DNA from: Acidobacteria bacterium 13_1_20CM_3_53_8
Lineage (GTDB): Bacteria; Acidobacteriota; Blastocatellia; Pyrinomonadales; Pyrinomonadaceae
Reading direction: 5' to 3'
NCBI GenBank assembly: GCA_001920415.1
Contig: MNJR01000004.1
Span: 1,479 to 65,478, forward strand
DNA length: 64,000 bases
A program made the translations under genes and the position numbers. The notes under the pieces are model-generated. The model was given only the letters and a program-made list of their open reading frames with translations, was not told where the DNA came from and did no database searches. This document shows, piece after piece, positions 32,992 to 33,144 of the stretch. The first letter of the stretch is position 1. Each line of letters starts with the position of its first letter.

Positions 32992-33144
32992 GTCAGTACC
33001 GCCTGCGGTAGCGGGCGGGTGAAGAAGTCAAAAGTAAAAAGGCAAAAGGCAAATAAAAAGATTGGCTTCTTCTCACTTTTTACTTTTACCTTTTTACTTT
33101 TGACTTTGCTAACAGACCCGCCCGCTACCGCAGGCGGTACTGAC
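32992..33144. repeat. Family-A palindrome, copy 2, with a family-D hairpin nested in its loop
   Basis: The arms (32992-33019 and 33117-33144) are identical to copy 1. The loop holds agtcaaaagtaaaaaggcaaaagg...ctttttacttttacctttttacttttgact. Confidence 0.85.

Follow-up and report, generated by a model that had tools for sequence, protein, structure and literature searches.

REP-like hairpins in REPIN-like doublets and their probable class 3 HUH-Y1 partner in an uncultured soil Pyrinomonadaceae

Nearly all detailed work on REP/REPIN-RAYT systems concerns Gammaproteobacteria. These systems have been described (Bertels & Rainey 2011, PMC3116915; Nunvar et al. 2010) as short extragenic palindromes, mostly arranged as inverted doublets that form one long hairpin, with (PMC3116915) a dominant master sequence, a single-copy Y1 gene lying between repeats and a copy number that varies among relatives. 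The palindromes reported here, a clean and well-populated example in an uncultured soil lineage, share these features. Two other described groups are pertinent. According to the class description of Quentin et al. (2018, PMC6006769), class 3 TnpA_Y1 comprises 24 proteins with a mean size of ~178 aa, mostly from Planctomycetes and other acidobacterial classes, that display an HuH motif of the form NHVH, a W[TA] motif, a Y-motif YV[VI][AENY]EQ (Y----Q) and extended conservation at the N terminus. The hairpins flanking these genes are depicted there as atypical, i.e. they are not of the GTAG type, have a 5' CnGA foot and are also dispersed, with ~600 in Solibacter usitatus. In 2018, the same authors pointed to class 3 Y1 proteins as a possible intermediate stage between insertion sequences and REP systems that have been domesticated, and they called for further experiments (PMC6006769). 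The acidobacterial TIRYT genes, or 'TIRtrons', outlined by Di Nocera et al. (2013, PMC3733652) form a sharply defined protein group found in Terriglobus, Koribacter, Acidobacterium, and Granulicella.

The window, i.e. the whole 64,000-nucleotide stretch of DNA that we analyzed, corresponds to G000:C92:1479-65478, where G000 is the source-genome assembly (6.1 Mb in 155 contigs) of a Pyrinomonadaceae MAG (Acidobacteriota) from soil. Two palindromes in the window are built from the 28-nt sequence GTCAGTACCGCCTGCGGTAGCGGGCGGG, named here the A arm, and two A arms in inverted orientation are named an A doublet. The features at the two loci are listed below in window coordinates.

5357-5358 and 5505-5506: duplicated TA around an X shell that is itself inserted in another hairpin
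5359..5504, no strand: X-type MITE shell, 146 nt, TAGCGGTTCTCACTTG...CAAGTGAGAACCGCTA, carrying the doublet of copy 1
5387..5414, + strand: left A arm of copy 1, exact match
5415..5431, no strand: loop of copy 1, 17 nt, TCGTAGCCGCACCGATA, common to ~22 X-shell copies, three of which have it flipped relative to the flanks
5432..5459, - strand: right A arm of copy 1, exact match
32956..32972, + strand: left outer arm of a Y shell, TAGGAGTTACGCAGTTG; this copy has lost the right one
32992..33019, + strand: left A arm of copy 2 (the focal copy), exact match, consisting of the foot GTCAGTA and the hairpin CCGCCTGC-GGTA-GCGGGCGG
33020..33116, no strand: cargo loop of the focal copy, 97 nt, with an A/G-rich family-D hairpin inside
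33025-33053 / 33078-33106: arms of this family-D hairpin, core AAGATTGGCTTC, linker TTTGCTAACAGA, fold computed
33117..33144, - strand: right A arm of the focal copy, exact match, inverted

As the original prediction had it, the arms of the two copies are identical. GTCAGTACCGCCTGCGGTAGCGGGCGGG is found with 0 mismatches at all four positions, and it had no match in 100 dinucleotide-preserving shuffles. The loops of 17 and 97 nt, the longer one being a family-D hairpin, are also as predicted when arms are defined as 28 nt long; at both copies the arms can be extended by one base (GGGT/ACCC), which leaves loops of 15 and 95 nt. The 73-nt doublet at 5387-5459 folds at -42.8 kcal/mol (z = -11) and the X shell around it (5359-5504) at -69.6 kcal/mol. 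This copy has a response-regulator gene on one side and, on the other, the 3' end of a gene encoding a cNMP-binding protein; the copy at 32992-33144 lies downstream of a DUF4062/TPR STAND-type gene. When the locus at 32300-33900 was compared with relatives, the upstream gene was found to be kept in four of them (G002, G004, G006, and G009) and the intergenic part was unalignable, with no pair of filled and empty sites. No Rfam family matched at A-doublet loci.

To identify the pairing within the arm, we aligned 80 distinct A-arm variants taken from the flanks of homologues of the Y1 gene presented below. Positions 8-15 pair with 20-27 (CCGCCTGC / GCGGGCGG, with a GGTA loop) in 92.3% of cells, and five of the eight stem pairs show compensatory changes, in 42 cells. 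The pair 10:25, for example, is seen as G:C, A:T, C:G, and G:T. None of 500 shuffles matched the observed covariation, and slid controls were all far lower. As ssDNA, a single arm folds as .......((((((((....)))))))).. at -9.6 kcal/mol, a structure representing 83% of the ensemble. The foot, GTCAG(T/A)A, is nearly invariant across the 80 variants, and the loop varies as GGTA, GATA, GTAA, GTGA, GTCA or GTTA. Within G000, the rare single-base arm variants are mostly in the foot, in the loop or wobble-forming (C15T); two disrupt the stem (G14A and G24A). According to this analysis, selection acts on a hairpin with an 8-bp stem, CCGCCTGC/GCGGGCGG, capped by a GGTA loop and preceded by the foot GTCAG(T/A)A. 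The mini-palindrome TACCGC-CT-GCGGTA pointed out in the original prediction is literally present in the arm, but its pairing finds no support in cross-genome variation. As a functional hairpin (6-10 with 15-19), it was rejected because only 67.5% of cells are paired, with no compensatory change and a score below that of the shuffles. Similarly, the GTAG that had been compared with the REPs of RAYT transposases does exist, but in the actual hairpin it is shared between the tetraloop and the 3' stem, and the 5' GT[AG]G foot of canonical class 2 GTAG RAYT systems is missing. The likeness of A arms to GTAG-type REPs is superficial.

A count of copies across the genome showed that the palindrome extends far beyond the two loci of the window. 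There are 262 A arms in G000 at ≤3 mismatches (132 forward and 130 reverse; a reversed control gave 0), of which 244 are exact, 13 have one mismatch and five have two, and no arm with three to five mismatches was found in this genome. A dominant master sequence thus makes up 93% of A arms. They are distributed over ~146 loci, 116 of which are inverted doublets and 30 unpaired arms. Nine unpaired arms have a variant partner, three a truncated partner, five are at a contig end, and for several others the partner has a small deletion. One variant arm, GTCAGTACCGCCTGC-TTAAGCT-GGGCGGG, forms a distinct class with 16 copies at six mismatches. Together with a normal A arm it makes a heterodimer, reminiscent of the Y/Z REPs in E. 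coli BIMEs. Comparison of loop contents between copies revealed three length classes (14-20 nt at 68 loci, 35-49 nt at 34, and 83-129 nt at 14), and the long loops contain other hairpin families. On crude ORF calls, 110 of the 116 doublets are intergenic: 31 in convergent, 69 in tandem and 10 in divergent gaps, against 529, 1967, and 583 gaps in the background. Convergent gaps are therefore enriched (28% of intergenic doublets versus 17% of background gaps). At G000:C90:7785-7818 there is a minimal 'double-foot' palindrome, GTCAGTACCGCCTGCTGTAGCGGGCGGTACTGAC, in which a single REP hairpin is both preceded and followed by a foot, a form that a central deletion inside a doublet would leave.

The original prediction suggested a link between the repeat and a RAYT-type transposase, with none in the window. 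A search of G000 with Pfam Y1_Tnp, which extended the hunt for IS200/IS605-like genes to the whole genome, gave four matches. The weakest, at C23:2085-2327(-), falls inside a 169-aa ORF on a contig outside the window, and this gene has the palindrome on both sides.

G000:C23:1983-2489: HUH-Y1 gene, 169 aa, with A doublets at 1872-1964 and 2500-2594, one on each side

The repeat is thus linked to a Y1_Tnp-family gene. Since the palindrome is not confined to two loci and a transposase-family gene is present in the genome, the earlier REP/transposase reading is supported. The gene is present in one copy in G000, there is no tnpB beside it, and the adjoining ORFs encode 104 and 117 aa. The protein passes Pfam Y1_Tnp narrowly (25.8 bits for a cut-off of 23) and fails the curated RAYT model NF047646 REP_Tyr_transpos (25.6 bits for a cut-off of 80). 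Across 36 homologues there is no variation at N94, H95, H97, W135 or Y156, nor at most of the first 28 residues. For the HuH motif, G000 has NHAH and most homologues have NHVH, the W motif is W135-A in G000 and W[AV] among homologues, and the Y-motif is Y156-V-I-N-G-Q in G000, with a nearly invariant Q161. Several homologues have YVINEQ or YVNNEQ, and most have G in place of E. An AlphaFold model of the protein (mean pLDDT 80.6, pTM 0.77) was used for a Foldseek search, in which the best 30 PDB matches were all TnpA from IS200, IS608, ISDra2 or Sulfolobus, or the E. coli REP transposase 4ER8. The last of these, the REP-associated transposase with its REP hairpin bound, superposes on the model with an rmsd of 2.9 Å over 154 columns. 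A search of the PDB chains by sequence, with the protein and with the 36-sequence profile, gave no match at E up to 10. As modeled, the 169-aa protein matches a predicted HUH-Y1 fold, with a ferredoxin-like core and a C-terminal helix bearing the catalytic Tyr. The three other Y1_Tnp genes in the genome score 81-96 bits (G000:C57:10349-10690, C130:22582-22926, and C142:155260-155598), those on C57 and C130 encode products of the YHLIFSTKNR...H-x-H type, and the 700-nt flanks of all three contain no A, X or Y arms. The genes on C57 and C130 were rejected as source of the cognate enzyme, there being no A arms within 700 nt on each side.

Next to the gene, the arms recur in other genomes. A homologue scan with one genome per species identified 252 loci, in Pyrinomonadaceae, Blastocatellia, and Acidobacteriota MAGs. 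In the best 80 of these 252 loci (3.5 kb each, counting arms with ≤5 mismatches within 260 nt of the gene), arms lie beside the Y1 homologue on both sides in 42 and on one side in seven, i.e. in 49 of 80. Within these 3.5-kb loci, 129 arm positions adjoin the gene and only seven are elsewhere. Among the 31 loci left, the majority carry inverted arms that have diverged, and several of these keep the foot-stem-loop build with a different stem, e.g. GTCAGTA-GCGTCGGC-GTTA-GCCGATGC. In another family of the phylum, the arms flanking a homologue are AGGTA-CCGCGAGC-GGGA-GCGAGCGG. The orientation of the arms is constant: the GTCAG end always faces away from the gene, which therefore occupies the place of the loop in a doublet. 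None of the immediate neighbors of the G000 gene recurs beside 109 homologous loci, and some relatives have two to four diverged copies of the gene, so vertical inheritance at a single site is not evident.

Across the phylum, 21 of 201 genomes contain a Y1 homologue. Among 41 relatives, the A arm is present in 23-24 genomes and the gene in 15. Fourteen of the 15 gene-bearing relatives have A arms (the single exception has a pseudogene), and 16 of the 26 gene-less relatives have none (Fisher p = 7.5e-4; Mann-Whitney on counts p = 5e-5), an association that is confounded by phylogeny and is not significant inside the family alone (p = 0.16). The A arm is conserved across genera, and its copy number ranges from 0 to 262 among genomes of the same family. 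The main counter-example to the linkage between gene and arm remains G007, a relative in this family with 237 arms at ≤3 mismatches, in which a Y1 homologue was undetected even with a profile. Because this assembly is 88% complete and in 480 contigs, the gene may simply be unassembled. In locus L071, tandem arm arrays (1348-1478 and 2039-2453) rather than doublets flank the Y1 gene, with three arms upstream and eight downstream at a period of ~52-56 nt, making a REPtron-like cluster. This contig, labeled Acidimicrobiia, and contigs L105, L125, and L133, labeled Heliomicrobium, carry close Y1 homologues with arms although their labels point to unrelated phyla, and the bins in question are probably mislabeled or mis-binned.

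How does this system compare with those described? It resembles class 3 TnpA_Y1, as that class is described in PMC6006769, in the size of the protein (169 aa), its NH[AV]H, W[AV], and YV[IL]N[GE]Q motifs, its N-terminal conservation and its occurrence in Acidobacteria, as well as in having hairpins beside the gene that are not of the GTAG type and that occur elsewhere too, in high copy number. The foot is different: the published one is 5' CnGA, whereas here it is GTCAG(T/A)A, with CTGA on the opposite strand only. With TIRYT genes, as outlined in PMC3733652, it shares a Y1 gene between non-GTAG inverted repeats that are partly self-complementary and dispersed as dimers, the difference, by published description, being that repeat families are small or absent for most TIRYT genes. 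Because the CnGA foot matches on the opposite strand only, and the likeness is to a published description, class 3 membership rests on motifs and architecture. By these, the 169-aa protein would be best filed with class 3 TnpA_Y1 and the acidobacterial TIRYT proteins and not with the GTAG RAYTs; its score below the NF047646 threshold also sets it apart from canonical RAYTs, as another class. IS200/IS605 elements (IS608 and ISDra2) are similar in predicted fold and catalytic motifs and, presumably, in recognition of a hairpin plus guide on a single strand. They differ in that there is here one gene copy, no tnpB and hundreds of non-coding derivatives, and in that the ends are inverted copies of one hairpin rather than two different subterminal hairpins on one strand.

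Considering the family, its structure, its extragenic location, its cargo-carrying copies and its linkage to the Y1 gene across genomes, all directly observed, we regard it as probable that A arms are REP-like units in REPIN-like doublets, that the class 3 HUH-Y1 protein encoded on C23 is their cognate enzyme, and that doublets have also spread in MITE shells. The putative unit of recognition would be a single-stranded GTCAG(T/A)A foot and, after it, a GC-rich stem of 8 bp capped by a G-N-N-A tetraloop, and two such arms in inverted orientation would make a REPIN-like doublet, present at ~146 loci almost all between genes. Judging from the linkage, the fold and the analogy with IS608 TnpA and E. 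coli TnpA-REP, the Y1 protein would bind the arm hairpin and foot on ssDNA, probably at the replication fork, and would cut and rejoin DNA through Tyr156 and a His95/His97 metal site. Binding, cleavage and insertion of this kind would allow the protein to mobilize the repeats, copying or moving any cargo that two inverted arms enclose, be it a short loop, a further hairpin or the protein's own gene.

The arms and the sequences between them have had different histories. Although clear homologues of one another, the 33 loops of 35-42 nt have a pairwise identity of only 56%, versus 99.25% for their 66 arms. In 16 Y shells, there is one substitution among 32 A arms, whereas identity is 90-100% in the outer arms, 40-90% in the spacers and 20-60% in the loops. 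Loops far more diverged than arms also distinguish these doublets from REPIN-RAYT systems. Moreover, near-identical loops are found in both orientations relative to asymmetric flanks, in three X copies and several Y pairs. A arms are far better conserved than simple copy-and-decay predicts. Copy-and-decay alone is insufficient, given near-invariant arms, loops that have drifted and flipped, and the absence of moderately decayed arms. Candidate causes are in-situ constraint, arm-limited conversion, template switching in the palindrome or loop-specific mutation. Since the A arms are symmetric, arm-limited conversion is possible in either orientation. That A arms are actively kept identical at each site, beyond being relics of copying, is a tentative idea to which we give rather little weight. 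The Y1 enzyme or arm-limited gene conversion could continually rewrite or replace the arms, and swap or flip the content between them, in which case a pair of inverted arms would act as a 'cargo slot' open to other hairpins in general. It may instead be that the arms were taken over by the host as binding sites.

Evidence for copying comes from the cargo. The family-D core, AAGATTGGCTTC, has 125 copies in G000, of which only 16 adjoin A arms. The junctions between arm and family-D hairpin at the focal copy recur at ~12 other loci; identical ones are seen both within Y shells and in no fewer than three or four unrelated flanks. The same is true of GGGATGA-type cargo. Identical arm-cargo junctions in unrelated flanks imply that the arm-to-arm unit was copied with its content, and, by this comparison of sequences, whatever cargo was present appears to have been copied together with the arms. 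In the window, family-D hairpins are found at 33025-33106, 43164-43274, and 60556-60675, and family-D-like hairpins also exist in relatives that have no A arm, e.g. G012.

These observations bear on the reading that doublets are host structural or regulatory elements (stabilizers of mRNA 3' ends, terminators or sites for chromosomal proteins), under selection site by site and with little current transposition. Arms that are nearly invariant while loops and shells drift would fit such elements, as would an extragenic location enriched between convergent genes, the conservation of the A arm across genera and the 237 arms kept by G007, in which the Y1 gene went undetected. However, the sequences 3' of the window arms are CTGTTCG and CTGCATG; with no T-run, the hairpins are not classical intrinsic terminators. 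A copy number of 0 to 262 within the same family argues against an essential host role, and the identical arm-cargo composites in unrelated flanks show copying. We therefore consider the host-element reading improbable as a full account. It is only a partial rival, because elements that arose through the Y1 system could also have a host role. A terminator reading of the hairpins, besides lacking the T-run, fails on orientation, as does a CRISPR-like reading.

About 60% of A doublets lie in repeated flanks. A second route of spread, beside the probable Y1 system, is directly evident. All 26 X elements have TA on both sides, and their target site, TCCAC-TA-AAYCACAC, which belongs to another hairpin family, is found unfilled with a single TA 74-85 times versus 9-11 filled. 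The TA duplication of the X shell is of the IS630/Tc1-mariner kind, and at least 26 doublets (~22% of 116) have been multiplied through the X-type MITE shell and not by the Y1 protein. Y and Z shells also have TA at both ends. Doublets are found at the center of TA-duplicating shells (X, and probably also Y and Z) that multiplied by an IS630-type mechanism, so that part of the A copy number is hitch-hiking. No empty X or Y shell was found: all 34 X-type shells (by a broader pattern) and all 24 complete Y shells hold a doublet. The third TA-bounded shell, Z, has ends ACCAAGTTGCAATAG and occurs at G000:C40:12131, C44:137461, C57:18371, and C60:36073; its center is an A doublet, a hairpin of the CACGAA type, or a partial arm together with a GGGATGA hairpin. 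There are 47 stand-alone doublets without a recognizable shell, mostly with loops of 35-42 nt, which is also the form of the doublets flanking the Y1 gene. No target-site duplication was detected at these 47 doublets (for k=2, 1 observed and 2.9 expected), and no strong target motif, apart from a weak CAR...YTG bias in the flanks.

It might be argued from the shells that a DDE transposase (IS630/Tc1-mariner) moves MITEs whose terminal inverted repeats are the A arms themselves, the Y1 gene being unrelated, given that the 5387-5459 copy and 25 others are inside a 146-nt TA-duplicated element and that Y and Z shells are bounded by TA as well. However, this TA duplication belongs to the outer shell and is absent at the 47 stand-alone doublets, the Y1 gene has these arms around it in most of 80 genomes, and the covariation within the arm is typical of a hairpin recognized by a protein and would be needless in a DDE inverted repeat. 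The likeness to IS630/Tc1-mariner MITEs, i.e. terminal inverted repeats and TA duplication, is limited to the X shell, whereas the A doublet has no duplication, is linked to a Y1 gene rather than to a DDE gene. A DDE origin of the arms is, on this evidence, very unlikely. The notion that the two window copies are identical by chance, assembly artifact or local gene conversion between just those loci, which drew on nothing but the initial two-copy view, is refuted to near certainty by 0 shuffle matches, 244 exact arms on dozens of contigs and the presence of the arm in 23-24 other genomes.

In the Y1-linked system that we favor, covariation has defined the recognition element, the gene is compact and single, the arms have natural variants, and protein and hairpin have changed together across dozens of genomes, so that binding and cleavage experiments as well as co-evolution analyses can be designed directly. 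The accounts of class 3 and TIRYT genes drawn on here (PMC6006769 and PMC3733652) do not describe a covariation-defined hairpin, nesting in MITE shells, or invariant arms with drifting and flipping loops, and the class 3 account (PMC6006769) does not describe the doublet form or heterodimers with a variant arm. Invariant arms next to drifting, flipping loops also make a test case for distinguishing between copying, conversion and host selection.

More generally, the gaps between genes in Pyrinomonadaceae are filled with A repeats, MITE shells and heptamer hairpins. The A repeats with their nested shells probably break assemblies, several arms being found at contig ends. The tandem-heptamer (GTGATAA, CAGTTTT) intergenic hairpins, seen in the window at 57080-57205, 42078-42214, 57954-58035, and 58752-58894, are scaffolds in which MITE shells and doublets nest. 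Elsewhere in the window, the segment at 8317-8364 (-) matches the Rfam Acido-Lenti-1 RNA with 46 bits (gathering score 37). The match is located in one arm of a 217-bp element (8312-8528) with 57-nt inverted ends, and the Acido-Lenti-1 'sRNA' motif may here be part of a repeat.
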